Below are positions 6,876-63,653 of a DNA stretch of 64,000 nt, piece by piece (the stretch's first letter is position 1; the number at the start of each line of letters is the position of its first letter). The DNA is from Heterodontus francisci (taxonomy: Eukaryota): positions 9,088,861 to 9,152,860 of the forward strand of contig NC_090410.1 in NCBI RefSeq assembly GCF_036365525.1. Reading direction: 5' to 3'. Below the pieces are notes generated by a model. It saw only the letters and a program-made list of their open reading frames with translations. It had not been told where the DNA came from and did not search any database. The position numbers and the translations under genes were made by a program.

Positions 6876-7000
6876 ACTTTAATTTGCAATTTCCATTTTT
6901 ACTGTTGGCTTCTTGCTTTCCTGATGTATTTTGAAGTGTGGATCCAATGATCCCTCCCCTCAACTATATTCTATTGGCTGTATTACTACCAGAATACCCA

Positions 7001-7634
7001 TAAACTTAACTGGAGTAGTCACATGAATACTGGGATTACAAGAGCAGGTCAGAGGCTGGGAATTCTGCGGCGAGTAACTCACCTCCCCAAAGCCTGTCCA
7101 CCATCTACAAGGCACAAGTCAGGAGTGTGATGGAATACTCTCCACTTGCCTGGATGGGTGCAGTTCCAACAACACTCAGGAAGCTCAACACCATCCAGAA
7201 CAAAGCAGCCCACTTGGTTGGCACCCCATCCACCACTTTAAACATTCACTCCCTCCACCACCGACACACAGTGGCAGCAGTGTGTACCATCTACAAGATG
7301 CACTGCAGCAACTCACCAAGGCTCCTTCAACAGCACCTTCCAAACCCGCGACCTCCACCACCTAGAGGGACAAGGGCAGCAGATGCATGGGAACACCACC
7401 ACTTGCAAGTTACCCTCCAAGCCACACACCATCCTGACTTGGAACTATATCACCGTTCCTTCACTGTCGCTGGGTCAAAATCCTGGAACTCCCTAACAGC
7501 ACTGTGAGTGTACCTACAAACTACAGGAGTTCAAGAAGGTGGCTCACCACGACCTTCTCGAGGACAATTAGCGATGGGCAATAAATACCAGCCTTGCCAG
7601 CGACGCCCACATCCTGTGAATGAGTAAAAAAAAA
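7001..7634 (+). mobile_element. 3' fragment of the tRNA-headed LINE family
   Basis: ORF 7127-7507 (MEYSPLAWMGA...HSLHHRHTVAAVCTIYKMH) matches ORF 56503-57006. Ends CCCACATCCTGTGAATGAGT followed by an A-run. Confidence 0.88.
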
Positions 7635-8030: not shown

Positions 8031-8522
8031 TTAACGCCTTGATTTCTTCCCCACCGAGTTGCGTCCATTGTTGCGGTACAAAGACTGCTTCTCGGGGTTG
8101 AAGCCGCAATATTTCAGGGTGTGGGCAGCATCGCCTGTGGCCTTGCAGAGGGGGCAGACGTAGTTACGCAGGATGGGGCACAGCACCTTCCCGCTGTCTG
8201 CCTTTAGCACGTGCGAGGAGTAAACTTTCCGCGACTCGCCGTTGTGCTTGCAGAAGGTGCAGATGCCGGTCGTCCGCTTTGGGGGGTTGTCGCGGCCCCC
8301 GTTGTTTGCCCAGCCCCCAGCGCCCTCATCGGAGGAGGGGTCCCCGCCCACCACGAGCGGGCGGAAGGCGCCTTTGGCGGGCGAGCTGACCTTGCCAGTC
8401 TCCTGCGTGTCCATTCCAGGCCGCCAGATCTCTTTGACCTTCATCGACAGTTGCAAGTAGTCCTTCCATATATCAAAATCCTTCTGCTTTCCAGGAGGAC
8501 ATTTGGGGGTAACTCTCTCCAT
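8031..8522 (-). CDS. nanos2: Nanos homolog 2 (163 aa, single coding exon)
   Basis: ATG at 8522 in strong Kozak context (GCCATGG). NOT1-interacting motif FDIWKDYLQL. Two CCHC fingers (CTFCKHNGE..HVLK..C; CPLCKATGDAAHTLKYC). C-terminus QSLYRNNGRNSVGKK resembles NANOS2 QSLYRRSGRNSAGRR. Linkage to fbxo46 and qpctl mirrors human 19q13.32. Confidence 0.93.
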   Translation of the reverse strand: MERVTPKCPPGKQKDFDIWKDYLQLSMKVKEIWRPGMDTQETGKVSSPAKGAFRPLVVGGDPSSDEGAGGWANNGGRDNPPKRTTGICTFCKHNGESRKVYSSHVLKADSGKVLCPILRNYVCPLCKATGDAAHTLKYCGFNPEKQSLYRNNGRNSVGKKSRR

Positions 8523-9114
8523 GGCCACTTCTGTTCAGGCTGCAAACACTCTTCAGTAGAGCTTTTCACCACAAACCATTAAGAGGGGGAGGGGGTGTGT
8601 AGCACTGAAATAACAAGGGGGTGTTCCCAAGAGTATTTTAATTTTAAAGCCCAGCTTGTCATCTCTTCTGGTCCCAGGTTCCCGGACAGGTAACAAGTTT
8701 ACAGACTATTTAATTCTGCCCCCTCTCCACACACCCACAAGCCCATGACATTTCAGTATTCAACTATTATTAAACTTAACAAAATTGCCTAATTTCTTTT
8801 GGTTTGCATTGCTGCATTGAGTGAATGCAGAATGGAAAAATGAACTGCACGATTAATGTGCAATTGACTGCAGTCTTCCTATGCGCTCTGCATTGCTGGC
8901 TTGCAACTGGTTTAATCTGCAACACAGACCCAATGCCTGTTGGGCTTACACTTGTCTAGTGTCTGTTGGGAGGGGGAGGAGGGGAGAGATGCAGGTAGGG
9001 AAAGCAGTAAACAATGTAATCCCTTAAATATCTAATGAATTCTACAGAAACAAGATCCCTGTTGGACTATACCACAGATAAAAGGGTGGTTCCATTTCCC
9101 TTCAGTCAAACAAA

Positions 9115-13619: not shown

Positions 13620-16566
13620 GTCGAAGGGGGTCGAGGTCAAGGAGGATCTCCAAGAGGTGAAGAGCCAGCAGGCCTCACTCTTTGCCACGGAGGCCTCCAA
13701 GATCATCATCTGGTCCAGAGTCCCGCTCTGTGGAGCAGGATGAGACATGCCCGTGCTTCTTCTTCCAAAAGGTACACACAGAGAGCTCTGTGATCAGCAG
13801 CCTGAAGGAAGAGGACGGCTCAGTAACGTCATCGCAGGACATACTAAGCATCAGCAAATCCTTTTATGCCGGGCTGTATGACATGAAGCCCACGAACAGC
13901 AGAGCCTCCCAGTCCTTCCTGTCCTCTATCACAGAGGTCTTAGATGACAGTACACTTGAGAATCTGGACAAACAGCTAACACTGAACAAGCTGACAAAGG
14001 CCTTCAGGTCCTTCGAGACCAGTAAAACTCCCAGAAGCGACGGCTTACCGGTTGAGTTGTATTCGACTCTGTGGGACTGGATCGGCCCAGACCTGCAGTA
14101 AGTGTACGAGGGTATGCTTCTAGACGGCAGCTTGTCAGAATCCATGAGGAAAGGCATCATCACCCTCATCTACAAGCGGAAGGGGAAGAGGGAGGAAATC
14201 AGAAATTGACGGCCCATCTCACTGCTCAATCTAGACTACAAGATTCTGTCCAAAGTCATCGCCAGTCGGGTCAAGTCTGATCTGCAGTTGGTGATTCACC
14301 CTGACCAGACTTGCACTGTACCCGGCAGGAAGATCTCCGATAGTCTTGCGTTACTCAGGGATACGATAGCCTATGTACGGGACAGGAGGGTGGACACCTG
14401 CCTCATCAGCTTGGACCAGGAGAAGGCTTTTGACAGGATATCGCACACCTACATGATGAACGTGCTTTCCAAAATGGGGTTTGGGGAGGGAATCAAAAAT
14501 TGGATCAAACTGCTCTACACAAAGATCAATCAGCAGTCTCAATCAATGGGTGGGAATCAGAAAGCTTCCCGATCAAATCTGGAGTCAGACAGGGCTGTCC
14601 TCTCTCCCCTGTCTTATTTGTTTCCTGTATCGAACCTTTTGCCGAGTCCATTAGGAAGGATACAGGCATAAGAGGGGCGACAATCCCAGGCAGCGGAGGC
14701 ACTCAGGTCAAAGCCTCCCAGTACATGGACGACGTCGCTGTCTTCTGCTCAGATCCGCTGTCCGTTTGCAGACTGATGAGCATCTTCGACCAGCTCGAAC
14801 TGGCCTCGGGAGCCAAACTAAATCACGGCAAGAGTGAGGCCATGTTCTTTAGGAACTGGGCTGACCAATTCTTTGTCCCCTTCACTGTCAGGATGACCTG
14901 AAGGTGCTGGGGATATGGTTCAGAGGGGCCGGGGTGTGCACTAAAAACTGGAAGGAGCGAGTAGCCTTGGTGAAACGGAAACTGGTCATGTGGGAGAAGC
15001 GCTCTCAGTGTTGCTGTATGAGGCACAGGTCTGGCCCATACCCTGCTCCTGCGCTGTGGCAGTACCCAAGCCATCTTCCGCTTTATCTGGAGATCGAAAG
15101 TGGACTGTGTCCTCAGGGAGACGATGTTCAAACATCTGGATATAGGGGCCTTTTTGTGCGGCTGCATCAAACTGTGCGTAGAGCCCCAGTATGCAAACAC
15201 TATGTGTCACTACGTGTTGAGGTTCTATAGGTCCCTGGTGTTTAGTTTAGAGTTTAGAGATACAGCACTGAAACAGGCCCTTCGGTCCACCATGGTCGGT
15301 CCACTGTGCCGACCATCAACCACCCATTTATACTTATCCTACACTAATCCCATATTCCTACCACATCCCCCCCTGTCCCTATATTTCCCAACCACCTACC
15401 TATACTAGGGGCAATTTATAATGGCCAATTTACCTACCAACCTGCAAGTCTTTTGGCTTGTGGGAGGAAACCGGAGCACCCGGAGGAAACCCACACAGAC
15501 ACAGGGAGAACTTGCAAACTCCACACAGGCAGTGCCCAGAATTGAACCCGGGTCGCTGGAGCTGTGAGGCTGCGGTGCTAACCACTGCGCCCCTGTGCCG
15601 CCCCTGTGTTGCGAAGGATGGGTCTGGTCACATTGCCACGTAACGCTCCATCCAGTTGGACTGTGCTGTACTACCTATCCTTCGTGGAATAGTTTGTGCA
15701 GAAAAACACCTTTGACCACCAATCCATCAGGCAGTGGTCTGCACAGAATGTCCTCAAGGCCTAAGGGAAAAGGAGATAGTGGACCCTGTCAGATAGTTCC
15801 CCGAGCAGACTGTCAAAGTCATTTGGCGGAATGCCTCATCACCAGAACTTTCAAACAAGCACCAAGACGTAGCTTGGCTGGTGGTGAGAAGGGCCCTCCC
15901 CGTCAGATCCTTCCTGCATGCCTGGAGTCTCACCCCCTCCGCATGCTGCCCTCGAAGTGGCTGTGGTGGGGAAAGACAGTTGCCCACCTCCTTCTGGAAT
16001 GTGCCTTTGCAAAGCAGGTCTGGAAAGAGATGCAGCGGTTTTTGTCGAGGTTCATCCCAAGCAGATCTGTAACACAGGAGTCTGTGCTCTACGGGCTCTT
16101 CCCAGGGACGCACACCGAGACAAACATCAACTGCTGCTGGAGGAACATCAGCTCCGAGAAAGCCGCTCTTTGGTCTGCCTGAAACCTGCTGGTCTTCCAG
16201 TACAAAGAGCGGTCCACGACCGAGTGTTGCAGACTGGCACATTGCAATGTCCAGGACTACATGTTGAAGGATGCACTAAAGCCTGGGGCAGCCGCCACAG
16301 AGGCTCAATGGGGAAAGGCTGCTCCCGCAATAGTATACTGAGGAGCAGGAAACCATGTAAAACTCCTCAGGCTGTATGCACCAGAGAATGTTTTTGCAAT
16401 GTAATGCAAATGTACATTGTATATAAAATGGAACAGCAAGAGTTGTGAGGCACCTCACGTTCTGTATCGAAAGAAACTGATCTTTATTGCACTTTCTGAA
16501 ATGTCCAATTTGAATTGTTTTGTAATTAATTTTTTATGAATAAAGTATATTTTTGGGGGGAAAAAT
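13620..16566 (+). mobile_element. Tx1-type (L1 clade) retrotransposon, 5'-truncated degenerate ORF2 plus 3' UTR, interrupted by an HE1 SINE
   Basis: KTPRSDGLPVELY, IHPDQTCTVPGR, LDQEKAFDRISH, GVRQGCPLSP and QYMDD motifs; C-terminal CP..GC...TVAHLLLECAFAKQVW zinc motif; ends AATAAAGTATATTTTTGGGGGGAAAAA. Confidence 0.9.
15241..15604 (-). mobile_element. HE1-type V-SINE nested in the Tx1 element
   Basis: Same head, V-domain and tail as 12871-13221. Tx1 sequence resumes on both sides. Confidence 0.9.
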
Positions 16567-25361: not shown

Positions 25362-25725
25362 AGGAGACGGTGACATAGTGGTAATGTCTCTGGACTAGTA
25401 ATAGAGGCCCAGCCTAACGTCCTGGGGAGACAGGTTCAAATCCCAACACGGCTGGTGGAATTAAAATTTAATAAGTAAAAATCTGGAATTGGAAGCTAGT
25501 TGCAGTTATGATGCCATGATTGTCGTAAAAACCCATCTGGTTCAGTAATGTCCTTTAGGGATGGAAATCTGCCATACTTACATGGTCTGGCCTACATGTG
25601 ACTCCAGGCACACATCAATGTGGCTGACTCTTAACTGCCCCCTGAAATGGCCCAGCAAGCCACTTCAGGGCAATTAGGGATGGGCAACAAATATCTACCA
25701 GTGATGCCCACATCCCATGAAAAAA
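25362..25725 (+). mobile_element. tRNA-headed SINE: head and leader of the 56.4-59.7 kb LINE joined to its 3' tail
   Basis: A box TGACATAGTGG, B box GGTTCAAATCC, body matching 59390-59671 (-), then AGGGCAATTAGGGATGGGCAA...CCCACATCCCATGAA matching 56455-56515 (-). Confidence 0.85.
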
Positions 25726-25789: not shown

Positions 25790-26108
25790 CCGCTCTCCCC
25801 TCCGAGCTAGAAGATCGTAGGTGCAAGTCCCACTCCGGAGAACATCATCTAGGCAGTAGGGAGGGAGTGCTGCACTGTCAGAGGTGCCATCTTTCGGATG
25901 AGATGTTTAACTGAGACCCCTTCTGCCCTCTCAGGCGGTAAAAAGAAATGTCCATGGGAACTTTTACGTCCACCTGAGGGGCCAGAAGGGCCTAATTTAA
26001 CATCTCAGCTGAAAGACGGAGATAAAAGATCCCACAGACACTATTTCGAAGAAGGACAGGGGAGTTCGCCCACTGGTGTCCTGGCTAATATTTATCCCTC
26101 AACCAACA
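25790..26108 (+). mobile_element. DeuSINE 5' part, truncated at a minisatellite
   Basis: Deu core up to AATATTTATCCCTCAACCAACAT. Confidence 0.68.
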
Positions 26109-26895
26109 TAAACACAGGCCCACACTGAGTCCGATATGCAGTATAAACACAGGCCCACACTGAGTCCGATATACAGTATAAACACAGGCCCACACTGAGT
26201 CCGATATACAGTATAAACACAGGCCCACACTGAGTCCGATATGCAGTATAAACACAGGCCCACACTGAGACCGATATACAGTATAAACACAGGCCCACAC
26301 TAAGTCCGATATACAGTATAACACAGGCCCACACTGAGTCCGATATACAGTATAAACACAGGCCTACACTGAATCCGATATACAGTATAAACACAGGCCC
26401 ACACTGAGTCCGATATACAGTATAAACACAGGCCCACACTGAGTCCGATATACAGTATAAACACAGGCCCACACTGAGTCCGATATACAGTATAAACACA
26501 GACCCACACTCATTTGGGTATACAGTATAAACAGGCCCACATGCAGCCCGGTATATAGTGTGTAAACACAGGCCCACACTCAGTCCAGTTTACAGTATAA
26601 GCACAGACCCACACTCAATCCGGTATACAGTATAAACACAGACCCACACTCAGTCCGATATACAGTATAAACACAGACCCACACTCATTTGGGTATACAG
26701 TATAAACAGGCCCACATGCAGCCCGGTATATAGTGTGTAAACACAGGCCCACGCTCAGTCCAGTAGACAGTATAAACACAGGCCCATACTCAGTCCTGTA
26801 TACAGTATATAAACACAGGCCCAAACTTAAGTCTAATGTACACAGTATAAACACACGCTAGTACCCAGTCTAACAGATACAGGATAAACACAGTC
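26109..26895. repeat. 35-bp minisatellite (about 22 units), consensus TAAACACAGGCCCACACTGAGTCCGATATACAGTA
   Basis: Units start at 26111, 26146, 26181 and onward. Near-perfect on the left and diverged on the right. Confidence 0.95.
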
Positions 26896-33752: not shown

Positions 33753-33992
33753 TTGGTGAGGATGGTCAGCATGTCTAGAACCCTCCTTACCTGCGGGTGT
33801 GCTCAGGGGAGGGATGTAGAAAGAGCAGAGAGAGAGAGGTTAACACTTTAGGTGAGATGCTCGCAGACATTCAACATCTCTCACTCTCTCTCTCTTGTTT
33901 TGCAGGCGAGGTCAAAACTGGACGCGTCTCCTTCGAACTGAATGAACGGGAAACGGAGACTGTGAGAGCTGGGGCCTGGCGGCCACAAAAGA

Positions 33993-35984
33993 ATGGAACA
34001 AAACACTTTCTCTCGCATAAGACTTTGGTGCCCCAGGCCTCTTGGCACCTACTCTCAGAACAAGCAGTGCTGCATCAGCGTCAAGAAGACCACGGGCGAT
34101 GCCAGGACCAAAGAGAATGAGCCCTCGTGCTCAGAGAACATGCCTCCTCCTCCCTCTACCACTGGCGGGGGCACTGCCCCGGGGGATGGGCAAGGGGAGG
34201 AAGGGCGGGTCATGCTGGATACCTGGTATGTCATCAAGCCAGGCAACACCAAGGAGAAGATCGCCTTCTTCGTCGCTCACCAGTGTGGTGGTGGCGGCAG
34301 CCGGAGCAACGCGGTGAAGGTCAAGGGCAATTGGAGTACAGATGGGACTAAGCCCAAGAGGAGGCGGAAGTCGCACGACCCTACCAAGGGCTGCCCAGCA
34401 AGGCTGAGGGAGCCGTGCCGGCTGGCGGAGAGGCTTTGCGTCTGCTCGGACCCCGTGGAACCGCCCTGTGAGACGGACCCGGTTTCAGTGGCGGAGATGG
34501 TGGCACGGGTGGAGCAGCGGGCGACGGCGGCCCCGCGGGGACAGGCCCGTCCGCCCCCGGAGCCATGCGGGGCGACGGGCGGGCAGGCGGGTGAGCCGCC
34601 GCCCCCGCCCATGGTGGTCCCCGAGGAGCAGGAGTCTGGCAGAGGGAGGGACGGGGGCGCCGATACCAGCCGGGTGGCCGAGGCCATTGCCAAGTTTGAG
34701 TCTGCGCAGCGGGGCAGTGGGGGTGAGGACGGCGGAGGGCGGCGCAATGGGCTTGCAAAGGGCGAGGGGGCCGGCGCCGGGGGGGGTGGAGATCGTGCCC
34801 CCTGTTCCGCCGGTGAAGTGCGCATTGCCTTCCGGGTGGCCAGCGGGGACACCCGCTCACCGGCGGAGGCGCAGTCCAGCACGGGGCCCAGCTGCATCTT
34901 CATGAGCTGCAACCACACCGTCTGCAGTGGGGCCATGGAGAAGATCACCTGCGACCTCTACCATATCGTCAGCCCCTCTTCCTCCTCCTCCTCCTCCTCC
35001 TCCTCTGTGTCTGCTGCTGACTTCCCGCCCGGAGGCGGTGGCGGCAGCAGCAACAACCACGGCAGTTTGGCCCGCTCCCGGTCGGATGTGGAGATGACGA
35101 CGCCCCACCCAGTCGAAGAGCAGCGGAACGACAGCCTCCCCGACGGCGCCGCCGCTACCACCCCTTCCTCGGAGAAGAGCGTGCCGCGGGACTGCCTGAA
35201 CGGCTTCCACGTGGAGGTAGTGGTGACGGGTGGCGTGGACCAGTGCGTCTTCTTCGGGCGGGAGGGAGCCCAGGGCGACAAGGAGGACACGGTCTGCGTG
35301 ACGGTCAGCGGCCCCAGCCAAGACGCCAAGTGCCTGGCCTGCGAGGACCCTCCGCCAGGCCAGCTCTTCTTCCTCCACTCTCTGGCCCAGAGCCCCGAGG
35401 CGGACCCCTCGGCGGACGAGTCGTCCGACAGGAAGCCCAGCCCGACCAGGCAGGGCCTGCCAGAGGCCAAGGAGAAGGCGGTCCTCTTGAGCCCCGAAAC
35501 CGACCCGCAGGACGCCTCGCTCTACTGCCTCTACCGCCACGTCTCGCATGACTTCCTGGAGATCCGGTTCAAGATCCAGCGCCTACTGGAACCCCGGCAG
35601 TACCTGCTTCTCCTCCCTGACCATGTGACAGTGAAGATCCTGAGCTACCTCCCAACCCGGGCCCTGGCCGCCCTCAAGTGCGTCTGCCACCACTTCAAGG
35701 CCGTCATTGAAGCCTACGGGGTCCGTGCCACTGACTCTCGGTGGAACCGAGACCCACTTTACCGCGATGACCCCTGCAAACAATGCAAGAAGCGCTATGA
35801 GAGGGGCGACGTCTCGCTCTGCCGCTGGCATCCCAAACCTTATCACCACGACCTGCCTTATGGACGCTCCTACTGGATGTGTTGCCGACGGAAAGACAGG
35901 GACACACCGGGCTGCCGAATCGGACTCCATGACAATAACTGGGTGCAGCCCAGTGACACATTAAAGAGGGAGGAGGGGAGGTAA
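33993..35984 (+). CDS. fbxo46: F-box only protein 46 (663 aa, single coding exon)
   Basis: N-terminal LWCPRPLGTYSQN; FBXO34/46 motifs LDTWYVIKPGNTKEKIAFFVAHQ, SVAEMVARVEQRA and HVSHDFLEIRFKIQRLLEP; F-box LPDHVTVKILSYLP; C-terminal YRDDPCKQC..CRWHPKPY..YWMCC. Acceptor (CT)n TTGTTTTGCAG| at 33905/33906. Confidence 0.95.
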   Translation: MEQNTFSRIRLWCPRPLGTYSQNKQCCISVKKTTGDARTKENEPSCSENMPPPPSTTGGGTAPGDGQGEEGRVMLDTWYVIKPGNTKEKIAFFVAHQCGGGGSRSNAVKVKGNWSTDGTKPKRRRKSHDPTKGCPARLREPCRLAERLCVCSDPVEPPCETDPVSVAEMVARVEQRATAAPRGQARPPPEPCGATGGQAGEPPPPPMVVPEEQESGRGRDGGADTSRVAEAIAKFESAQRGSGGEDGGGRRNGLAKGEGAGAGGGGDRAPCSAGEVRIAFRVASGDTRSPAEAQSSTGPSCIFMSCNHTVCSGAMEKITCDLYHIVSPSSSSSSSSSSVSAADFPPGGGGGSSNNHGSLARSRSDVEMTTPHPVEEQRNDSLPDGAAATTPSSEKSVPRDCLNGFHVEVVVTGGVDQCVFFGREGAQGDKEDTVCVTVSGPSQDAKCLACEDPPPGQLFFLHSLAQSPEADPSADESSDRKPSPTRQGLPEAKEKAVLLSPETDPQDASLYCLYRHVSHDFLEIRFKIQRLLEPRQYLLLLPDHVTVKILSYLPTRALAALKCVCHHFKAVIEAYGVRATDSRWNRDPLYRDDPCKQCKKRYERGDVSLCRWHPKPYHHDLPYGRSYWMCCRRKDRDTPGCRIGLHDNNWVQPSDTLKREEGR

Positions 35985-40007: not shown

Positions 40008-40401
40008 TTTCATTTTTTCATGGGGCATGGGCATCACTGGCAAAGCCAGCATTTGTTGCCCATCCCTAATTGTCCTTGAATTGAGAGGCTTGCTCGGCCA
40101 TTTCAGAGGGTAGTTAAGAGTCAACCACATTGCTGTGGGTCTGGAGTCATATGTAGGCCAGACCGGGTAAGAACAGCAGATTTCCTTCCCTAAAGTGAAC
40201 CAGATGGGTCCTTACAACAACGATAGCTTCATGTCGCCATTACTGAGACGAGCTTCCAATTTCAGATTTTTAAAAAATTCATTAACTGAATTTAAATTCC
40301 ACCAGCTGCCATGGTGGGATTTGATCCTGTTTCTCCAGGGCATTAGCCTGGGCCTCTGGATTACTAATCCAGTGACATTACCACTACACCACCGTCTCCC
40401 C
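40008..40401 (-). mobile_element. tRNA-headed SINE (derivative of the 56.4-59.7 kb LINE family)
   Basis: The - strand reads GGGGAGACGGTGGTGTAGTGGTAATGTCACTGGATTAGTAATCCAG...GATCAAATCCCACC, then leader, then the LINE 3' tail CAAGGACAATTAGGGATGGGCAA. Confidence 0.85.
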
Positions 40402-42854: not shown

Positions 42855-45800
42855 CACTGCACCTCCTCCCACTCTCCCTATACACCTCCAACAGACGGTT
42901 CCAGAGCCGTGGTTTTCATGGCCTCTGGAGGTGAGGGGGGTGCCTGTCTGAGTGGAAGGAAGACGCGGAGAAAGAATAAACACCGAGAGGTGAGTCACCT
43001 GGACACTGTGGCACAACCTGAGCCTGAGCTCAGCCCAAGGCCCAATCCCAGGGAACCCACCTGCCCCAGGCTGGGCTCGGGGCCCAGGGTAACCAGGCAA
43101 AAGGAGGAGGCGGAGGCCTCTGATGACATGGAGGACACTGAGCCTCCGCGCCCTAGTGGGAAAAAGAGGAGAAGGCACCCCTCCACAGAGGTAACACCCT
43201 GAGGTGCAGGGCCCATCTGCTGGAAGGGAGCTGTCTCCTGATGCGGGTCCCCAGGTTTCCCCTGCCACCACCATCATAAAGGCTGTAAAGCCTGGGCAGG
43301 AGCTTCCTACCCCTCATGATGGAGAGGAGGGGGAGAACCCTGTACATGTGGCCCTTACTGAAGGAGCTTGTGGTGTGGGAGCCTGGAGCTGCTCCTGGAG
43401 AAGCCTCCCCGTCTCCCACTGCGTCGGGTGCCGAGTGGATGGGAGGGCGAGGCTCTGAAGGGTCTGCCCTCCCAGCCAAAATCCACTCCCGACCAGGTTG
43501 TATCCAACCCAGTTATGGATGAAAATGCTGTCCACTCTGCTGGGCCTGTGGGCACTGGCAGGGCGGGATTGGCCTCCTCCCTCTGCCTCCCGTCCAGGCT
43601 CCGGCTGGAGTTCCAGACTCAGGAGCTACCATCTCCCCTGGGCCGCACATTGGGAAGTGGAATGGGGTTCTGAACCGCTGGTGCCCATAGGCTCCAGCCC
43701 GATAGATTAACCTAAAGAGGACTTCTCCGCCATCGATCCTGGGTGGGATCATGATGAAGGTGGGACCAGCTGGCACAGCCGGGACTTCCACCCCGCGGTG
43801 TGTAGTTGGTGTGTTGGCCGCTGGTGGTGACGACCAGGAGGAGGATGTAGACTTGGTGTGGGGCACGGAGGATGACCTTGAATCCGCCAGTGAGGCGGTG
43901 GACTCCCTCGTGCCTCCCACCAAGTCTCCTCTCATCCCCACCATGAACTCCGGGCCTTCCTCGCGGCATGCAGGGGTTGTCTCAATAATGTTCAGCTGGC
44001 CCTCGGTCGATGGTCGAGTTTGACGCTGTTCAGCCAGTCCATCTGTGTCACCCTCGGAGGCGGGGAAGGGCACAGGCGTGAAACTGGTTGAGAGGCTCCA
44101 TTTCTCAATGGGTTGCTTGGGGAGTGGAAGGCAAAATGCACTTCTGCTCCCTCCTCACAGTGAGACGATGGTGACGGGTTCTAAGTACTTTTGACATAAA
44201 GATAACCATAGCCAGCCTCAACATCAACGGCAGCAGGGGGTCTCTCCACAGATTTCACAATCCCGCAGTCCTCAGGGAAGGGAGCTATGCGGTGAACTTT
44301 CTGCAGGAAACCTACACTGTTCCGGGAGACACCTGGCTCCTGGAGTGGCAGGGTAGGGTCTATATGAGTCACCTCACCCCTATTTCTAGTGGGGTGGCTA
44401 ACTTGTTGGCCCGACTTTTCAGCTGGAGATCTTGTGGGTCAGGGAGCTTGTGCCGGGCCGCTTGCTCCACCTCGCTGTTCGCCTGGGTAGCGTGCCGCTC
44501 CACTTTGTGGACGTGCACGTGCCTGGGCCCAGCGCATTGTAAGCGCGCTTCTTTAAAGAAGTGTCCACTCTCTTGAGCTCTATCAATAGCGGCGACTGCA
44601 TTATCCTTGGTGGGGGGGGGGGGGGGAAATTTAACTGCACCCTTGAGGTGAGGGATTGCTCTGGTCCCCAGCAGAGCCAAGCATCGGTGGAGAAGTTGAG
44701 GGAACTGATCAGCTCCTTCCACTTGGTGGATGTCTGGCAGAATCTCGATCCTGACTCCAGCGCCTTAACCTGGAGGTCTGGAGGAGGAGGGTCCCGAATC
44801 GACCGCCTCTACATTTCGCAGGCATACGTCTCCCGCTTCTCGGCGGCCTCCATGCGGCTGGTGCCGTGCTCGGACCACCACCTGCTGTGGGCGGAGTTGA
44901 CTCCGCTCCGCACGCGGGCGGGGTCCGCGTACTGGCACTTTAACAACCGGCTGCTCGAGGACGAGCGATTTCGGGACTCTTTCTGTTGATTCTGGGCCGA
45001 CTGGAGAAGGAAGCAGGGGGGCTTCCCCTCCTTGAGGCTATGTTGGGATGTGGGCAGGAGTATGCGTAGGGGTTGACCAAGAGGTGGAAAGCTGAGATGG
45101 GGCGCCTAGAGAGGGAGGTGCTCGACTTGGAGTCCTGTCTCGGTCATGCCGTCGCGGACCTGGCCCTGTGACAGGCGTACAATGAGTGTGCTGAGGGACC
45201 TGCAGCTCATAGGGTCCTGAGGCGCATACGTGAGGTCGCGGGTCCAGGTCCTGGAACATTTGGACCGTGCCTCACCCTCTTCTACTCGCTGGAAAAATGG
45301 CGGGGGTTCCGTAAGCAGCTCGTTGAGCTGCTGGCCGACGACAGATCTTCCATCACGGATCCGGAGGGAATGGGCCTTTTGGTCCATACCTATTACTGCA
45401 CGTTATTCTCTCTGGATCCATACAGCGAGGACGCATACAGAGTTTTGTGGGAGGACCTGCCGAAGGTCAGCCCAGAGGGTGCCAAAGGATTAGAGGCTCT
45501 GCTAACGTTGGCGGAGCTGACCGGTGCCCTCCACCAGCTCTTGAGGGGCAAATCCCCGGGGCTGGACAGGCTGATCTTGGAGTTCATCAGGGCATTCTGG
45601 GACGTCCTGGGGGGCAATTACACGTGGGTTCTGGGGGAAAGCCTGGCGACTGGGGGGATGCCCCTCTCCTGGCACAGGGCGATCTGCGCTTACTTAACAG
45701 CTGTAGTCTGATCTCCCTCCTCAGCACGGATGATAAGATCTTTACCCGGGCTATGTCTACCCGCCTGGGCTCTGTGCTGGCCCACATGATCCACCCTGAC

Positions 45801-46000
45801 CAGTCCTGCACGGGCCTGGGCCTGGGCCGGTCCATCCAGGACAACATCCACCTGGTCTGGGACCTGATCCATCTTTCCCAGAGGTTTCGCCTGTTGGTCG
45901 CCTTTCTCTCCCTCAATCAAGGGAAGGCGTTCAACAGGATGGATCACAAATATCTTTTCAGGACTCTGCGTGTGGTCGGACTCGGGCCACATTTTATATA
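42855..46000 (+). mobile_element. Tx1-type retrotransposon: low-complexity ORF1 C-terminus plus degenerate ORF2 (APE + partial RT)
   Basis: IASLNINGSR near 44208, FLQET, SRIDRLYIS, CSDHH, AYWHFNNRLLED, KSPGLD, MIHPDQS and LNQGKAFNRMDH; many frameshifts. Confidence 0.88.
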
Positions 46001-46834
46001 TGTGGCCCCTGGTTTTGGTCTCCCCACAAATGGAAACATCTCTATGTCTACCTTATTGAGCTCCCTCATAATCTTAAAGACCTATATCAGGCCACCCCTC
46101 TCTTCTCAAGAAAATAGTTCCAATCCTTTCAATCTTTTCCTTCCTTGCACATCACAGAGTATTAGCATTAACAAAGACTACAGTTGTGTGAGTGGGTAGT
46201 AGCTGCCCAAAGATCCTGGGAATGCTCTGCTGAGAGGGTGAATGCATTGCCTGGTGTGCTGCTGGCCAGAGAGTCACAGGTCTTCCCCTCCCTTCCCCAA
46301 CCCCCCACTCCGGTTGATGCTATGGTACCTCAACTGTGCTGGGGTTGCTTTAATTAGCCCCTGGGCTGGGAGGAGAGGGGGAATCAGACAGAATTCCAGC
46401 TCATGATTTACACAGAACATACGGAACACAACAGGCCATTCAGCTCTACTTGTCCATACTAGTCCACACAAGCTTCCATCCTCCTTCATCTCACCCTATC
46501 AGCATATCCTTCGATTCCTTTCTCCCTCACATGCTTATCTAGTTTCCCTTTAAATGCATCTATGCTGTTTGTCTCAACTATGCCACATGCTAGTGAGTTC
46601 CACATTCTTACCACTCTTGAGAAAACTGCCCACCAAGTAAGTATAGGTTTGTAGACACAGGCATTGGATTTGACTGCGATGCCTCCCATGGTCGACACCA
46701 CCTTGGCTCACACATGTATAATGAAGAGAGAATTAGCAGAGGGCAGGCAAGCACCTCTTGGAAACCTACCCTGCAAGAGGCAACATCATCAAGGGAGCAG
46801 GGAACATGGAATTGATACTGATTCCCATTGTAAG

Positions 46835-47052
46835 GTATCCATCCTGACTTGGAACTATATCACCATTCCTTCACTGTCGCTGGGTCAAAATCCTGGAACT
46901 CCCTCCCTAACACTGTGGGTGTACCTACACCGCAAGGACTGCAGTGGTTCAAGAAGGCAGCTCACCACCACCTTCTCAAGAACAATTAGGGATGTGCAAT
47001 AAATGCTGACCTTGCCAGTGACGCCCACATCCTGAGAATGAATTTTTTTAAA
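46835..47052 (+). mobile_element. 3' fragment of the tRNA-headed LINE family
   Basis: CATCCTGACTTGGAACTATATC...CAATTAGGGATG...GCCCACATCCTGAGAATGAAT. Confidence 0.8.
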
Positions 47053-47617: not shown

Positions 47618-47850
47618 CTCATGAAACTACTGGATTGTTATAAAAACCCATCTGGTTCACTAATGTCCTTCAGGGAAGGAAATCTGCCATCCTTACCTGG
47701 TCTGGCCTACATGTGTCTCCAGATCCACGGCAATGTAGTTGACCCTTAACTGCCCTCTGAAATGGCCTAGCAAGCCACTCAGTTGTATCAGACTGCCACA
47801 GAATAGCACTGTGAGTGTACCTACCTACACCACATGGACTGCAGCAGTCT
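47618..47850 (+). mobile_element. Headless fragment of a tRNA-headed SINE (leader joined to a longer LINE 3' piece)
   Basis: AAAAACCCATCTGGTTCACTAATGTCC...GAAATGGCCTAGCAAGCCACTCAGTTGTATC, then AGCACTGTGAGTGTACCTAC..CACATGGACTGCAG. Confidence 0.78.
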
Positions 47851-51254: not shown

Positions 51255-54200
51255 ACAAGGATCGGTACTTGGGGCCCCAACTGTTCACTAGACATGTCAA
51301 TGATTTGGATGTGGGGACCAAATGTAATATTTCCAAGTTTGCGGATGACACAAAACTAGGTGGGAATGTGTGTTGTGAGGAAGATGCAAAGTGGCTTCAA
51401 GGGGATTTGGACAGTCTTAGTGAGTGGGCAAGAACATGGCAGGTGGAATATAATGTGGAAAAATGTGAGCTTATGCACTTTGGCAGCAGGAACTGATGTG
51501 CAGGGTATTTCTTAGATGGTAAGAGATTAGAAAGTGTAGCTGTACAAAGTGACTTGGGTGTCCTCGTCAATAAGTCACTGAAAGCTAACACACAGATGCA
51601 GCAAGCAATTAGGAAGGCTAATGGTATGTTAGCCTTTATTACAAGAGGATTTGAGTGCAGGAGTAGTGAAGTCTTGCTTCAATTGTATAGAACCTTGGTT
51701 AGAACACACCTGGAGTACTGTGTGCAGTTTTGGTCCCCTTATCTTAGGAAGGATATTATTGCCATAGAGGGAGTGCAATGAAGATTCACCAGACTTGTAC
51801 CTGGGAAGGTGGGACTGTCCTCTGAAGAGAAATTGGGGAAAATGGGCCTGTATTGTCTAGAGTTTTGAAGAATGAGAGGTGATCTTATTGAATCCTACAA
51901 AATACTGAAGGGATAGATGTGGTAGATACAGGTTAGATGATACCCCCTGGTTGGGAAGTCTAGAAGCAGGGGACACAATTTCAAATTAAGGAGGAAGCCA
52001 CTTAGGACTGAGAAGAGGAGAAGTTTCTTTAGAATCATAGAACGTTTAAGGCCACCTTCCAACATCTGGTCCGTAACCCTGCAGCTTACGGCACGTGAGG
52101 TGCATATCCAGACTCCTTTTGAATGAGTTGAGGGTCTCTGCCTCAATACCCTTTCAGGCAGAGAGTTCCAGACCCCCACCACTCTCTGGGTGAAGAAGGT
52201 TTTCTTCATCTCCCCTCTAATTTTTCTCCCAATCACTTTAAATCTATGCCCCCTTGTCACTGACCTCTCTGCTAAGCTGGATAGACCCTTCACCTCCACT
52301 CTATCCGGGCCCCTCAAAATTTTGTACATTTCAATGAGATCTCCCCTCAGCCTTCTCTGTTCCAAGGAGAACAACCCCAGCCTATCCAATCTTTCCTCAT
52401 TGCTGCATTTTTCCAGTCCTGGCATCATCTGCGTCAATCTCCTCTGTACCCTCTCTAGTGCAATTACAACATTTCTGAAATGAGGTGACCAGAACTGCAC
52501 ACAGTACTCAAGTTGTGGCCTAACCAATGAGTTATACAGTTCCAGCAGAACCTACCTGCTCTTGTATTCTGTACCACGGCTAATAAGGGAATGGGTTCCA
52601 TATGCCTTCTTAACCACCTTATCGATCTGTCCTGCTACCTTCAGGGATCTATGGACATTCAAGGTCCCTTACTTCCTCTATACTTCTCCGTATTTTCCCC
52701 ATTAATCATGTATTCCTTTGCCTTGTTTGACCTCCCCGAATGCATCACCTCACACTTCTCCAGGTTGAATTCCATTTGCCACTTTTCTGTCCATCTGACC
52801 AGACCATCAATATCTTCCTGTAGCCTGCAGCTATCCTCCTCGCTATCTACCACACGGCCAATCTTTGTGTCATCTGCAAACTTCTTGATCATACCTGCTA
52901 CATTAAGGTCCAAATTGTTAATATACACCACAAAAAGCAGGGGACCCAGTACTGAGCCCTACGGAATGCCACTGGAAACAGCCGTCCAGTCGCTAAAACA
53001 ACCGTCAACAATTACCCTTTGTTTCCTGCCACTGAGCCCATTTTGTATCCACTGCTGCATTTCCCTGGATTCCATGGGATTTTATTTTTTTTAACCAGTC
53101 TGCCATGTGAGACCTTGTCAAAAGCCTTGCTAAAATCCATGTAGACCACATCACCTGCACTACCTTCATCTTTCTTCCTTGTTACTTCTTCAAAAAATTC
53201 AATCAAAATTGTCAAACAAGATCTTCCCTTAACAAATCCATGCTGACTATCCTTAATTGATCTGTGCTTTTCTAAGTGATAGTTTATCCTGTCTCTCAGA
53301 ATAGGTTCCAATAATTTGCCCCCTACTGAGGTTAGCCTGTAACTATTCGGTCTATCCTCACTCCATTTTTAAACAGAGGTACAACATTAGCAATTCTCCA
53401 ATCCTCCGACACCACACCTGTCTCCAGTGAGGACTGGAAAATGATGGTCAGACCCTCTGCTATTTCCTCCCTTGCTTCTTTTGACAGCCTAGGATACATT
53501 TCACCTGGCCCTGGTGATTTATCAACTCTCAAGGATGCTAATCCCATTAATATTTCCTCTCTCCCTATGTTTATCACATCCAATGCTTCACACTCTTCCT
53601 CCTTAACTACAATATCTGCATCATCCCCCTCTTTTGTGAAGACAGACGCAAAGTATTCATTAAGAACCATACCAACATCTTCTGCTCCTACACATAGGTT
53701 ACCTTTTTGGTCTTTTATGGGTCCTACTCTTTCCTTAGTTATCCTCTTACTCTTAATGTATTGATAAAACATCTTTGGGTTCACCTTGATTTTTCTTGCC
53801 AATATTCTTTCATGCCCTCTCTTTGCGTCCTAATTTCCTTTTTGATTTTATCCCTCCACTTTCTATAATCCTCTCGGCTTTCTGTAGTATTGAATTCTTG
53901 GTGTCGGACATAAGCTTTCCTTTTCTGCCTTATCTTACCCTGTAAGCTCCTTGACATTCATGGGGCTTTAGATTTGGCCGTCTCACCCTTTTTCTTTGTG
54001 GGAACATGTTTACAGTGAACCCCTTGAATCTCTCCTTTGAATGTCTCCCACTGCTCTGATACTGATTTACCTTCAAGTAGCTGTTTCCAGTCCACTTTCG
54101 CTAAATCGCTCCTCAGTTTACTAAAATTGGCCTTGCCCCAATTGAGAACTCTAACTCCTGTTTAAACTCTGTGGTTTTCCATAATTATGTTTAAACTGAC

Positions 54201-55175
54201 TGAATTTAGTTATAGACTATGGATTATGATCACTACCACCAAAATGCTCTCCCACTGCCACTTCTTCCACCTGCCCATCTTCATTTCCTAAAACTACGTC
54301 TAAAACTGTGCCCTCTCTTGTGGGACTTGCTACGTACTGGGCAAACAAGTTCTTCTGAATGCACCTCAAGAATTCTGCTCCCTCAATTCCTTTCAAACTA
54401 TCCCAGTTAATATTGGGGTAATTAAAATCCCCTACTATTACTGCCTTACTGTTCTTGCACTTCTCAGAGATTTGCCAACATATCTGCTCTTCTATCTCCC
54501 TCTGACTAGTTGAGAGTCTATGGTGCACTCCCAGCAGTGTGATTGCCCCTTTTTTGATCCTTAGCTCAATCCATATGGCCTCATTTGATGAGCCTTCCAA
54601 CATATCATCTCTCCTCACAGCTGTAATAATTTCTTTGACCAAAACTGCCACTCCTCCTCCTTTCTTTTCTCCCTCCCTATCGCATCTGAAAACCCAGTAA
54701 CCAGGAATGTTGAGCTGCCATTCCTGTCCCTCCTTAAGCCATGTTTCTGTAATAGCTATGATATCATACTGCCACGTGTCTATCTGCGCCTGCAGCTCAT
54801 CTGCTTTATTTGCTATACTCCTTGCATTGAAATAGATACCATTGAGCACTGCCAAAGTCTCTCTAACCCTCATTTTCTAACCCTCATTTCCTCTGTCTTC
54901 CAGACTCATCCATTAATTTTCCGCCTTCCATTTTAATTTCTGATTTACTCAGAGGGTTGTGAATCTTTGGAATTCTCTACTCCAGAGGGCTGTGGAAGCT
55001 CAGTCATTGAGTATGTTTAAAGTAGAGATTGACAGATTTCTAAATGCCAATAATATAAAGGGATCTGGGGATAGTGTGGGAAGTAGGCATTGAAGTGGAT
55101 GATCAGCCATGATTGTATTGAATGGCGGAGCAGGCTCGATGGGCTGAATGGCCTTCTCCTCCTATGTTCCTATGT
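51255..55175 (+). mobile_element. CR1 LINE 3' half (51255-52030 and 54945-55175), split by a nested antisense CR1
   Basis: SKFADDTKLGG and LYRTLVRTHLEYCVQFWSP. Sequence breaks at AGTTTCTTT and resumes at ACTCAGAGGGTTGTGAATC. Confidence 0.85.
52031..54900 (-). mobile_element. HER1-like CR1 LINE, nearly complete degenerate ORF2
   Basis: APE IYFNARSI..IAITETWL..VGDFN..SDH; RT KSPGPG, SQHGFVKGRSC, MDFSKAFDKV, KFADDTK; C-terminus VRPQLEYCVQFWSP..WNSLP; stops and frameshifts. Confidence 0.93.
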
Positions 55176-56008: not shown

Positions 56009-56444
56009 TACATGTAAGGAGAGTGATCATAGAATCAAAGAACACAGGAGGCCATTCAGCCCTTTGAAAGAACTATCCAGTTAACTCCACATAGCCCTGC
56101 AAATTTCTCCTTTTTTTTTCTTTTTAGTAACATAGCTAATTGCCTTTTGAAAGTGACTATTGAATCTGCTTCAGTTAGCACATTCCAGTCCATCATTAAC
56201 ATGTTGCATGGAAAAATAAACTAATTTCCCTCCTGGAATATTTGACAATTATATTAAACCTGTGTCCTCTGCTTCCCGACCTTCCTGCCACTGGAAAAAG
56301 TTTCTCCCTATTCACACTATCAAAACCCCTTCTGATTTTAAACTTCTTTGGGCAAAACTTTTGTTTTCAACACGGAAGGTTGTGAGGCAGTGGAATGTAC
56401 TCAAGGAGTTAGCGATTGACGCAGAGACCATGTATGTTAGCAAC

Positions 56445-59400
56445 TTTTATTCATTCATGGGATGTGGGTGTCGCTGGCTATGCCAGCATTTATTGCCCAT
56501 CCCTAATTGCCCTTGAGAAGGTGGTGGTGAGCTGCCTTCTTGAACCGCTGCAGTCCGTGTGGGGTAGGTATTGTGCTGGTAGCAAGGGGGTCCCAGGATT
56601 TTGACCCAGTGACAGTGAAGGAACGGCGATATAGTTCCAAGTCAGGATGGTGTGTGACTTGGACGGGAACTTGCAGGTGGTGGTGTTCCCATGTATTTGC
56701 TGCCCTTGTCCTTTTAGTTGGTAGAGGTCGCGGGTTTGGAAGGTGCTGTTGAAGGAGCCTTGGTGCATTGCTGCAGTGCATCTTGTAGATGGTACACACT
56801 GCTACCACTGTGTGCCGGTGGTGGAGGGAGTGAATGTTTGTAGATGGGGTGCCAATCAAGCAGGCGGCTTTGTCCTGATTGGTGTCGAGCTTCTTGAGTG
56901 TTGGAGCTGCAACATCCAGGCAATTGGAGAGTATTCCATCACACTCCTGACTTGTGCCTTGTAGATGGTGGACAGGCTTTGGGGAGTCAGGAGGTGAGTT
57001 AGTCACCTCAGGATTCCTAGCCTCTGACCTGCTCTTGTAGCCACAGTATTTATATGGCTACTCCAGTTCAGTTTCTGGTCGATCGTAGCCCCTAGGATGT
57101 TGATAGTGGGGGATTCAGCGATGATAATGCTGTTGAATGTCAAGGGGAGATGGTTAGATTCTCTCTTGTTGGAGATGGTTTCTGCCTGGCACTTGTGTGG
57201 TGCGAATGTTACTTGCCACTTGTCAGCCCAAGCCCGGATATTGTCCAAGTCTTGCTGCATTTCTACACGGACTGCTTCAGTATCTGAGGAGTCACGAATG
57301 GTGCTGAACATTGTGCAATCATCAGCGAACATCCCCACCTCTGACCTAATGATTGAAGGAAGGTCATTGATGAAGCAGCTGAAGATGGTTGGGCCTAGGA
57401 CACTACCCTGAGGAACTCCTGCAGTGATGTCCTGGAGCTCAGATGATTGACCTCCAACAACCACAACCATCTTCCTTTGCGCCAGGTATGACTCCAGCCA
57501 GCGGAGGGTTTTCCCCCTGATTCCCATTGACCTCAGTTTTGCTAGGGCACCTTGATGCCAGACTCCGTCAAATGCTGCCTTGACGTCAAGGGCAGTCATT
57601 CTCACCTCACCTCTGGAGTTCAGCTCTTTTGTCCATGTTTGAATGAAGGCTGTAATGAGGTCAGGAGCTGAGTGGCCCTGGCGGAACCCAAACTGCGCGT
57701 CACTGAGGAGGTTATTGCTAAGCAAGTGCCGCTTGATGGTACTGTTGATGACACCTTCCATCCCTTTACTGATGATAGAGAGTAGGCTAATGGGGCGGTA
57801 ATTGGCTGGGTTGGACTTGTCCTGCTTTTTGTGTACAGGACATACCTGGGCAATTTTCCACATTGCAGGGTAGATGCCAGTGTTGTAGCTGTACTGGAAC
57901 AGCTTGGCTAGGGGCGCGGCAAGTTCTGGAGCAGAGGTCTTCATTACTATTGCCGGGATATTGTCAGGGGCCCACTGCCTTTGCAGTATCCAGTGCCTTC
58001 AGTCGTTTCTTGATATCACGCGGAGTGAATCGAATTGGCTGAAGTCTGGCATCTGTAATGCTGGGGACTTCAGGAGGAGGCCGAGATGGATCAACAACTC
58101 GGCACTTCTGGCTGAAGATTGTTGCAAATGCTTCTGCCTTATCTTTCGCACTGATGTGCTGGGCTCCCCCATCATTGAGGATGGGGATATTTGTGGAGCC
58201 ACCTCCTTCAGTTAGTTGTTTAATTGTCCACCACCATTCACGGCTGGATGTGGCAGGATTGCAGAGCTTAGATCTGATCCGTTGGTTATGGGATCGCTTA
58301 GCTCTGTCTATCGCATGCTGCTTATGCAGTTTGGCACGCAGATAGTCCTGTGTTGTAGCTTCACCAGGTTGACACCTCATTTTGAGGTATGCCTGGTGCT
58401 GTTCCTGGCATGCCCTCCTGCACTCTTCATTGAACTAGGGTTGGTCTCCTGGCTTGATGGTAGAGTGGGGGATATGCCGGGCCATGAGGTTACAGATTGT
58501 GGTTGAGTACAATTCTGCTGCTGCTGATGGCCCACAGCTCCTCATGGATGCCCAGTTTTGCATTGCTAGAACTGTTTGAAATCTATCCCATTTAGCACTG
58601 TGGTAGTGCCACACAACACGATGGACGGTATCCTCAATGTGAAGGCGGGACTTCATCTCCACAAGGACTGTGCGGTGGTCACTCCTACCAATACTGTCAT
58701 CGACAGATGCCTCTGCGGCAGGCAGATTGGTGAGGACGAGGTCAAGTATGTTTTCCCCTCTTGTTGGTTCCCTCACCACCTGCCGCATACCCAGTCTAGC
58801 AGATATGTCCTTTAGGGCTCGATCAGTAGTGGTGTTACCGAGCCACACTTGGTGATGGACATTGAAGTCCCCCACCCAAAGTACATTCTGTGCCCTCGCG
58901 ACCCTCCGTGCTTCCTCCAAGTGCTGTTCAACATGGAGGAGTACTGAGTCATCAGCTGAGGGAGGGCGGTAGGTGGTAATCAGCGGGAGGTTTCCTTATC
59001 CATGTTTGATCTGATGCCATGAGACTTCATGGGGTCCCGAGTCAATGTTGAGGACTCCCAGGGCAACTCCCTTCCTGCTGTATACCACTGTGCCACCACC
59101 TCTGGTGGGTCTGTCCTGCTGGTGGGACAGGACATACCTGGTGATGGCAGTGTCTGGGACATTGTCAGTCAGGTATGATTCTGTGAGTATGACTATGTCG
59201 GGCTGTTGCTTGACTAGTCTGTGGGACAGCTCTCCCAACTTTGGTACAAGCCCCCTGATGTTAGTAAGGAGGACTTTGCAGGGTTGACGGGGCTGGGTTT
59301 GCCATTGTAGTTTCCGGTGCCTAGGTCGATGCCGGGTGACCCGTCCGGTTTCATTCCTTTTTATTGACTTTGTAGCGGTTAGGTACAACTGAGTGGCTTG

Positions 59401-59671
59401 CTCGGCCATTTCAGAGGGCATGTAAGAGTTAACCACATTGCTGTGGGTCTGGAGTCACATGTAGGCCAGACCAGGTAAGGACAGGAGATTTCCTTCCCTA
59501 AAGGACATTAGTGAATTTTTACAACCATCAACAATGATTTCATGGCCATCTAGTTTTTTAATTCCAGATTTATTAATTGAATTCAAATTTCATCTTCTGC
59601 TGTGGTGGGATTTGAACCCATGTCCCTGGGTCTCTGATCCAGTGACAATACCACTATGCCACCGCCTCCCC
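56445..59671 (-). mobile_element. Full-length 3.2-kb single-ORF CR1/L2-group LINE with a tRNA-derived 5' head (this copy is frameshifted)
   Basis: A box TGGCATAGTGG (59651-59661) and B box GGTTCAAATCC (59608-59618). ORF pieces 58996-59436, 58435-58920, 57964-58380, 57003-57944 and 56503-57006 assemble into APE (LLTNIRGL, LTESYL, GGG, VGDFN, SDH) plus RT (NYRPISLL, QFGFR, GVPQGSVLGP, FADD). Tail (GAAT)2 AAAA. Confidence 0.92.
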
Positions 59672-59994
59672 TCAGAATGGATTTGATAGGTAGTTGAAGA
59701 AAACGGGAATAATCGGAGTGAAACGGGCACGTGGGATTAGGATACTGCTGATGTGGAGGATTAGCACCAACTTGGAATGACTGGGCTCCATCTCAGTTGT
59801 GAATTATCTTTAGCTAACTCGGGACAGACTGGGAATCAAAACTAGGATCTTCTCATCTGTGTGGATTGGTCACAGGTGTGTAATCAGGAGAATTATCTGA
59901 ATTTTTTCAATTATTTCTGTGTTAGGTTAAAGTTGTGTCCATCTTGACTGGTGGTTTCAGTGAAATTCACTCTCCTCTTCCGCCCTCTGTAAAC

Positions 59995-62171: not shown

Positions 62172-62590
62172 TGGGGCATTTATTGCCCATCCCTAATTGA
62201 CCTTGGAAAAAGTGGTGGTGAGCTGCCTTCTTTGACCGCTACAGTCCGTGTGATGTAGCTATACCCATGAGTGCTTCTCGTTCTTTGGCAGTTTGATGCA
62301 ACTGAGTGGCTTGCTAGGCCATTTCAGAGGGCAGTTAAGAGTCGACCACATTGCTGTGGGTCTGGAGTCACATGTAGGTCAAACTGGATAAGGACTGCAG
62401 ATATCCTTCCCTGAAGGACGTTAGTGAATCCGATAGGTAGTTTCATGATCATTATTAATGAGATTAGCATTTTATTGCAAATTTATTAATTGAATTTAGA
62501 TTCCCTCAGCTGCCAGAGTGGGATTTGAACTCCTGTTTCTGGAGCATAAGGCTGGGCCTCTGGATTACTAGTCCAGTAACATCACCACTA
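62172..62590 (-). mobile_element. tRNA-headed SINE (derivative with a longer LINE 3' piece)
   Basis: The - strand has TAGTGGTGATGTTACTGGACTAGTAATCCAG..GTTCAAATCCC, then leader, then CACACGGACTGTAGCGG..CTCACCACCAC..CAATTAGGGATGGGCAATAAATG. Confidence 0.82.
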
Positions 62591-63287: not shown

Positions 63288-63653
63288 GGGCGGCACAGTG
63301 GCGCAGTGGTTAGCACCGCAGCCTCACAGCTCCAGGGACCCGGGTTCGATTCCGGGTACTGCCTGTGTGGAGTTTGCAAGTTCTCCCTGTGTCTGCGTGG
63401 GTTTTCTCCGGGTGCTCCGGTTTCCTCCCACAAGCCAAAAGACTTGCAGGTTGATAGGTTAATTGGCCATTATAAATTGTCACTAGTATAGGTAGGTGGT
63501 AGGGAAATATAGGGACAGGTGGGGATGTTTGGTAGGAATATGGGATTAGTGTAGGATTAGTATAAATGGGTGGTTGATGTTCGGCACAGACTCGGTGGGC
63601 CGAAGGGCCTGTTTCAGTGCTGTATCTCTAATCTAATCTAGAATCTAATCTAA
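63288..63653 (+). mobile_element. HE1-type V-SINE
   Basis: Full head, V-domain, HER1 tail with (CTAAT)n. Confidence 0.9.

Follow-up and report, generated by a model that had tools for sequence, protein, structure and literature searches.

RNA polymerase III (Pol III) normally makes short non-coding RNAs only. The locus considered here raises the question of whether this polymerase may also read a complete protein-coding retrotransposon. It lies in a 64,000-nucleotide stretch of Heterodontus francisci DNA, which was analysed as a whole and is called the window below, and it carries on the minus strand a full-length, decayed LINE that begins with a tRNA-like head (Table 1). According to the original prediction, the coding strand of this element has been purged of Pol III terminators, since it lacks runs of four T (T4). 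The counts on which this idea was built were reproduced. Positions 56445-59671 of the plus strand contain no run of A4 or longer, seven A3 runs and 14 runs of at least T4, and the longest A4-free interval of the 64-kb window is found at 56358-59699 (3342 bp). The single A4 reported for the sister copy at 1-1943 (1482-1485) is also present; it corresponds to a CpG C>T change that simultaneously creates a stop codon, and the same site in the 56445-59671 copy reads TTTCAA in the sense direction. The fragment at 7001-7634, described as free of sense TTTT, has its sense on the plus strand, which contains no T4 there.

Table 1. Positions of the tRNA-headed LINE, its parts and related elements in the window.
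Feature	Position	Strand	Remarks
Full-length decayed copy of the tRNA-headed LINE	56445-59671	-	4.4% off the family column majority
tRNA-like head	59598-59665	-	about 21 nt between the boxes deleted in the window copy
A box TGGCATAGTGG	59651-59661	-	10-11 nt from the 5′ end; from sequence and mapping
B box GGTTCAAATCC; family majority GGTTCGAATCC	59608-59618	-	from sequence and mapping
Non-coding 5′ body, also in the SINE	59401-59597	-	contains several short frames opened by upstream AUGs
Remnant of the single 975-codon APE-RT frame	56503-59400	-	
Apurinic-type endonuclease domain	58671-59277	-	PF14529, PF03372 (Pfam); bounds approximate
Reverse transcriptase domain	57084-57827	-	PF00078, E 1.7e-36
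3′ tail, predicted stem-loop and ATGAATGAATAAAA end, common to the SINE	56445-56502	-	
TTGTT windows of the window copy (4 T in 5)	57456-57460, 58093-58097, 59530-59534	-	its only three
SINE copy, head and 5′ body fused straight to the LINE 3′ tail	40008-40401	-	
Second SINE copy, same build	25363-25721	+	
Sister copy, cut by the window edge	1-1943	-	one T4, at 1482-1485
Older 5′-truncated 3′ family fragment	6998-7634	+	no sense T4

The APE-RT frame of the window copy is interrupted by stops at 58998, 58437 and 57005 and by frameshifts near 57966 and 56913, and the state of the source elements was read from the family. The LINE family is abundant: a first look at the 6.0-Gb genome gave 38,110 candidates for it, of which 40 were scored and 30 fetched. 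The column majority of the fetched copies, which lie about 2-4% from it, is 3302 nt long and holds one 975-codon stop-to-stop frame with about 310 nt ahead of it. Of 133 shared non-CpG variants, 76 are synonymous in this frame, as compared with 23 and 25 in the other two. The in-frame excess indicates that the source elements were selected for protein, and it has thus been shown that the APE-RT frame of the family sources is under purifying selection. With APE and RT domains (Pfam) in a long selected frame of the majority, the family has the make-up of an autonomous APE-type LINE, dispersed as scattered copies with a fixed 3′ end, 5′ truncation and no LTR; no consistent target duplication was seen across 22 full-length copies. 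Gene models of Heptranchias, Pristiophorus, Scyliorhinus and Rhincodon contain protein fragments that are 66-89% alike, and 60-85% of the sampled family words are present in five coded organisms, which indicates that the family is spread among sharks.

All family evidence is that of one lineage. The majorities of old and young copies (19 and 80, respectively) differ in 78 of 3278 columns. When three old copies, 75-80% and 68% alike, served as queries for deeper subfamilies, the same lineage came back; hence no independent replicate of the T-tract loss was found. Diagnostic positions are mosaic among the copies, with little tree structure, which suggests many recombining source elements. Outside the family, the closest full-length proteins (unnamed) are 35-42% identical to the family protein, the metagenome relatives of the LINE are distant (23-48% alike), and a search of viral contigs returned no relatives. 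A quick RT tree covering 55 rows out of 57, the other two being too short, puts the family in a clade separate from the HER1-like CR1, and this position, together with about 310 nt before the frame as against an upstream ORF1, places it outside the CR1 clade proper. A possible lead to its clade is CR1-Zenon. The CR1-Zenon label has been reported for whale shark repeats in a passage of 10.1101/443036.

Several other features share the window with these copies. More head, body or tail fragments of the family lie at 62283-62542 (-), 47656-47800 (+), 46839-47043 (+) and 62176-62262 (-). A tRNA-like call with undetermined anticodon at 63292-63364 (+) is probably another SINE head. Two decayed LINEs at 14200-16400 (+) and 45172-46200 (+) are labelled here as Tx1-like, and the first is the source of a control family used below. 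At 33966-35984 (+) an intact frame of 672 codons in a single exon carries an F-box domain (PF12937, PF00646) and is presumably FBXO34/46-like, a nanos zinc finger frame (8031-8534, -; PF05741, E 9.6e-26) is located about 400 bp from the family fragment 6998-7634, and a tandem repeat at about 26090-26590 appears as a repetitive open frame.

The tRNA-derived head is an integral part of the LINE. Apart from the window copy, all 29 fetched head matches (40 scored, 30 fetched) continue into the LINE body, although the head query contained bases specific to the LINE and thereby biased the search towards LINE copies and away from SINEs. Moreover, among the 90 copies reaching the first 400 nt, 57 start within positions 1-6, most of these (45) at 4-5, and their flanks are unrelated. 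In family coordinates the A box starts at 15 and the B box at 79, both boxes being assigned by the box consensus, and a putative start some 10 nt ahead of the A box gives the element the layout of a Pol III type 2 unit. The Rfam tRNA match of the head is weak (E 0.45, under the gathering score), ARAGORN called no tRNA at the LINE head, and the cloverleaf folds poorly with both boxes intact. Among copies the boxes are no more conserved than the 5′ body. The blank result of ARAGORN in all 36 scanned loci (of 80) of the metagenome relatives says little, because the program also misses the LINE head; a loose A-plus-B pattern is present in one of 20 long relatives. None of six Deu, Meta or UCON3 motifs taken from a passage of PMC7245038 was found in the 5′ body with at most one mismatch, a comparison that covers short motifs only.

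The head might act as an RNA structure and not as a promoter, either by mimicking a tRNA for cleavage by RNase P or by providing a host co-transcript with a site of ribosome entry. The uniform 5′ ends and the fold of the 5′ 435 nt, slightly better than that of shuffles (z -2.0), are consistent with such a role, and the passage on R2 and L1Tc in PMC6765202 provides a ribozyme precedent. However, the cloverleaf is poor though the boxes are intact, no Rfam ribozyme match occurs in the element, and a loss of T tracts across 3 kb is not predicted by such a role of the head, which makes this explanation very improbable.

With regard to the terminators themselves, the absence of T4 extends from the window copy to the family column majority, which has none. 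Sense-strand T is low (20%), and the strength of the observation depends on how this is taken into account. The absence stands out against base shuffles at P of about 0.01 (4.3-4.5 expected, P 0.006-0.008), but it is not significant against dinucleotide shuffles (1.7-1.9 expected, P 0.13-0.18) or against codon shuffles of the family frame (2.1 expected, P 0.09). Taken alone, it is therefore weak evidence that cannot carry the claim of purging. After removal of 9 duplicates from 128 matches of 1.2 kb or more, 119 distinct copies remain, with 48 T4 in 289,640 bp, 13 of them at one CpG where the change makes a stop, and the carriers of three recurrent T4 sites share no clear excess of rare variants over background. 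The HER1-like element at 52031-54900 (-), put forward as an internal control with more than ten A4 runs, indeed has 16, yet this is about three times the T4 number expected from its bases, so it is not a matched control. TTT accounts for four of 18 Phe codons in the family frame. The headless relative L081, which lacks a B box and belongs to the wider clade, does not share the depletion, having 20 T4 against 20 expected for its composition. L081, with Met at residue 21, is the sole wider-clade relative with DNA.

Termination of human Pol III is brought about also by T3VT2, T2VT3, T3VT, TVT3 and T2VT2, while T2GT2, like T3, is almost inactive, according to the passage on these motifs in Orioli et al. 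(PMC3141230). The rules applied to the shark LINE thus derive from human cells. A wider class was defined as five-base windows with at least four T, a statistic picked after the first look. The family frame has one such window against 10.7 expected, and none of 1000 codon shuffles is as low. The corresponding A, C and G windows are not depleted, with observed and expected numbers of 58 and 59.6, 75 and 64.4, and 52 and 51.2, respectively. The Tx1-like family, which at 21% T is the better control, has 32 T windows against 33.9 and 4 T4, and the HER1-like family has 62 against 54 and 19 T4. Of the 80 metagenome relatives, 63 have a matching frame of 300 codons or more; their ratio of T windows has a median of 1.03 and a minimum of 0.49, and that of the family is 0.09. 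In the window copy, T4 together with T3VT, TVT3, T2AT2 and T2CT2 sum to 0 against 9.3, and one of 1000 dinucleotide shuffles is as low. The single T window of the majority frame is TTGTT, as are the three survivors of the window copy. T runs of exactly two are at expectation (69 against 68.8), whereas runs of three number 4 against 10.7 (9/2000), all four being Phe TTT codons; TTT is the most depleted non-CpG trinucleotide, and TTA is used for none of 92 Leu. The loss of T runs on the sense strand is real, family-wide and specific to T runs. The claim of purging thus gains support from the wider class of T tracts and not from the T4 statistic.

These numbers also bear on the idea that a T-poor, Phe-poor frame of one lineage merely happens to lack T4. 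In its favour are the P values of 0.09-0.18 for T4 alone under matched controls, the frames of two short T-poor relatives (L085 and L141), which are also without T4, and the choice of the four-T-in-five statistic after a first look. The rank of TTT as the most depleted non-CpG trinucleotide, a ratio of 0.09 that is far under all 63 relatives and both in-genome controls, and motif classes taken from a paper and not fitted to the data speak against it, and chance or composition is hardly credible as the whole explanation.

How far the signal reflects a general scarcity of TT was determined by fixing the codon-junction counts of TT, TA and CG. Under this control T3 number 4 against 6.1 (39/400), T4 0 against 0.5, and the active motifs 0 against 3.1 (16/400; 7/400 with all 16 dinucleotides held), although the control removes part of the effect that selection on runs would itself cause. 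Since much of the deficit disappears, the T-tract signal and the scarcity of TT overlap. Host mutation does not account for the gap, because dead copies gain T beside T at about ordinary rates (A>T, G>T). T3-creating C>T changes are a little less frequent in the copies as well (0.017 against 0.027), and one of 37 shared T gains makes T3 as compared with 9% of private gains, numbers too few for power. A loss of conserved Phe is not supported, as 12 of 16 Phe columns are kept, like in the relatives, with overall Phe low (1.8%).

The LINE could also be transcribed by Pol II or by host read-through, with a SINE-type head obtained by template switch and T tracts avoided for some other reason, for example cryptic splicing, U-rich signals of decay or cleavage, innate recognition of U-rich RNA or slippage of the RT on U runs. 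Passages of PMC5786205 and PMC2666806 hold LINEs to be Pol II elements, fixing the TT counts takes away much of the signal, and codons ending in TA and TT (TTA and TTT, counted above) are rare too. Nevertheless, isolated TT at its expected frequency is contrary to plain UU avoidance, pyrimidine tracts that are not depleted (35 against 26.5 expected) are contrary to avoidance of splicing, and the persistence of AATAAA (4 against 1.1 expected) and of the GU-rich TTGTT is contrary to avoidance of polyadenylation. Two other LINE families of the same genome, moreover, retain their T tracts. On this evidence, a Pol II origin of the transcript is unlikely.

If Pol III transcribes the element, the unit itself should be free of terminators. 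No T4 or strong interrupted T tract lies inside it, and the 3′ tail of the family majority is without an internal terminator. One weak motif, TATTTCT, is found between the boxes in the younger majority (38 of 61 copies), and under human rules it is a weak terminator.

The frame poses a second problem, that of translation. No in-frame Met precedes residue 285 of the family frame, the ten AUGs upstream belong to other or short frames, and the stop codon immediately ahead of the frame is the source state of the family. GAG or CAG at this stop was considered as a mark of AUG-start sublineages and rejected, as no variants are common to the 16 carriers (of 80 copies) and other CCTAG sites also have an elevated T>G. 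Recurrent T>G or A>C changes at CCTAG/CTAGG sites (e.g., majority 309, 2188 and 2335) are well over the 0.7% background and form an apparent mutation hot spot. Near an out-of-frame AUG at about residue 16, considered as the origin of a possible frameshift, no shared non-CpG variants were found. The basic N-terminal stretch of the frame resembles the nearest relative, P0048, which begins there with Met. Three shared changes right after the stop are synonymous in the frame, which hints weakly at a start close to the stop.

A division of labour between two polymerases would account both for the loss of T tracts and for the protein supply: the Pol III RNA would be copied, and read-through by Pol II at the same or sister loci would furnish capped transcripts for the protein. 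Pol III RNAs are as a rule untranslated, as stated in a passage of PMC2666806, which agrees with such an arrangement. With ten upstream AUGs and none in frame, however, cap scanning would be poor too, and selection on the source frame requires that template and protein be closely coupled, a coupling that supply in trans would weaken. We consider this arrangement improbable, more so than transcription by Pol II throughout.

The two copies of the SINE in the window are informative about the history of the unit. The SINE, about 400 bp long, consists of the first 327 nt and the last 75 nt of the LINE (88.6% and 92% alike), and the 30 copies fetched agree with their own majority at 91% and so look older. 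It is likely that the SINE arose as an internal deletion of the LINE lineage, or else donated the LINE head. T4 or longer occurs in 11 of 30 SINE copies, nine of them at one T/A site. This site (near 125) is tentatively read as decay, because its lengths vary, the query carried T4 and it is like the T-then-A tracts at LINE tails. At those tails (L193, L196, L197, L200 and L208) A runs have given way to T-then-A tracts of varied length. TTTT stands directly at the tail of 7 of 56 complete LINE 3′ ends, and it may be either decay or a terminal terminator in some sources.

The LINE shares with the single-ORF APE-RT LINEs of the CR1 group the APE-then-RT frame, the 3′ stem-loop, short or absent target duplications and 5′-truncated copies, and differs from them in the tRNA-derived head with A and B boxes, the lack of an in-frame AUG and the loss of T tracts. 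At 3.3 kb and with an APE-RT frame it is not a SINE2, and the short, non-coding build of that class fits only the 400-bp partner, which has the tRNA head, non-coding body and LINE-type tail of SINE2 elements including the shark SacSINE1 and CmiSINEs (partner L2-2_CM), as described in a passage of PMC5499810. By that description the latter are non-coding and share only the 3′ tail with their LINE, whereas in the present case head and body belong to the LINE itself. RTE-1_DAn and related elements (PMC5786205) are LINEs which, as here, hold tRNA-like sequence matching SINE2 heads, but they belong to the RTE clade, and the passage concerned gives no head position, promoter role or terminator analysis. 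The bipartite non-autonomous LINEs treated in the same source (RTE, Ingi, Vingi and R2 SIDEs) combine LINE 5′ and 3′ ends like the 400-bp SINE; they are described there from four clades only and are regarded as products of Pol II to which a head is added afterwards, whereas in the shark the parent is already headed. R2 and L1Tc, in the part of PMC6765202 devoted to them, resemble the proposed shark LINE RNA in their single frame, uncapped RNA and presumed translation by a 5′ structure, but an HDV-like ribozyme releases them from Pol I or polycistronic transcripts, and no such ribozyme was found in the shark LINE.

Taken together, the head, the T-tract loss and the selected frame make it probable that the LINE is a Pol III-transcribed autonomous element translated without an in-frame AUG. 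Pol III would initiate 10-11 nt before the A box, driven by the internal A and B boxes, and would read the entire 3.3 kb of the source elements. Mutations creating T4 or interrupted T tracts would truncate the RNA ahead of the 3′ recognition hairpin and thereby be lost from source lineages. Pol III would stop at the first T tract of the flank, in an Alu-like manner; the first T4 is encountered at 0-708 nt in 50 of 56 flanks. The uncapped LINE RNA might then be translated from a cap-independent, non-canonical start, and the APE-RT protein may copy its own RNA in cis by target-primed reverse transcription, without ORF1. Individual steps have precedents in the passages available from earlier work: Pol III RNAs retrotranspose with ORF2p alone, although as a rule they do not code (Kroutter et al., PMC2666806), the uncapped RNAs of R2 and L1Tc are thought to be translated via an IRES-like 5′ structure (PMC6765202), and functional Pol III mRNA was the subject of Gunnery and Mathews 1995, as cited in PMC5703244. 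Four sequencing runs, two guessed to be RNA and two DNA, cover all 30 family bins as contigs that carry no start, strand, cap or level.

The full account, in which a shark Pol III protein-coding retrotransposon has had its 2.9-kb frame rewritten to dodge terminators, relies on uncapped non-AUG translation, does without ORF1 and has given rise to a SINE by deletion, is drawn from sequence features, and we give it an even chance of being correct in all its parts. A search of the open literature, a scope that excludes Repbase Reports and subscription journals, turned up no account of either a Pol III LINE or the present LINE family, and the passages covered of the papers on MetaSINE (PMC4824008), hagfish SINE (PMC7245038), bivalve SINE (PMC11481361) and whale shark (10.1101/443036) give no match.

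The divide between LINEs and SINEs rests on the polymerase, Pol II for coding and Pol III for non-coding elements, as set out in a passage of PMC2666806, and a Pol III LINE, if true, would break this rule. It would also be a natural long Pol III message, which would make uncapped translation and the loss of ORF1 testable, and its compact unit of promoter and RT may be of use as a tool. For the origin of SINEs it would mean that one step, deletion of the middle of a Pol III LINE, may be sufficient, beside the head-capture model presented in a passage of PMC5786205.
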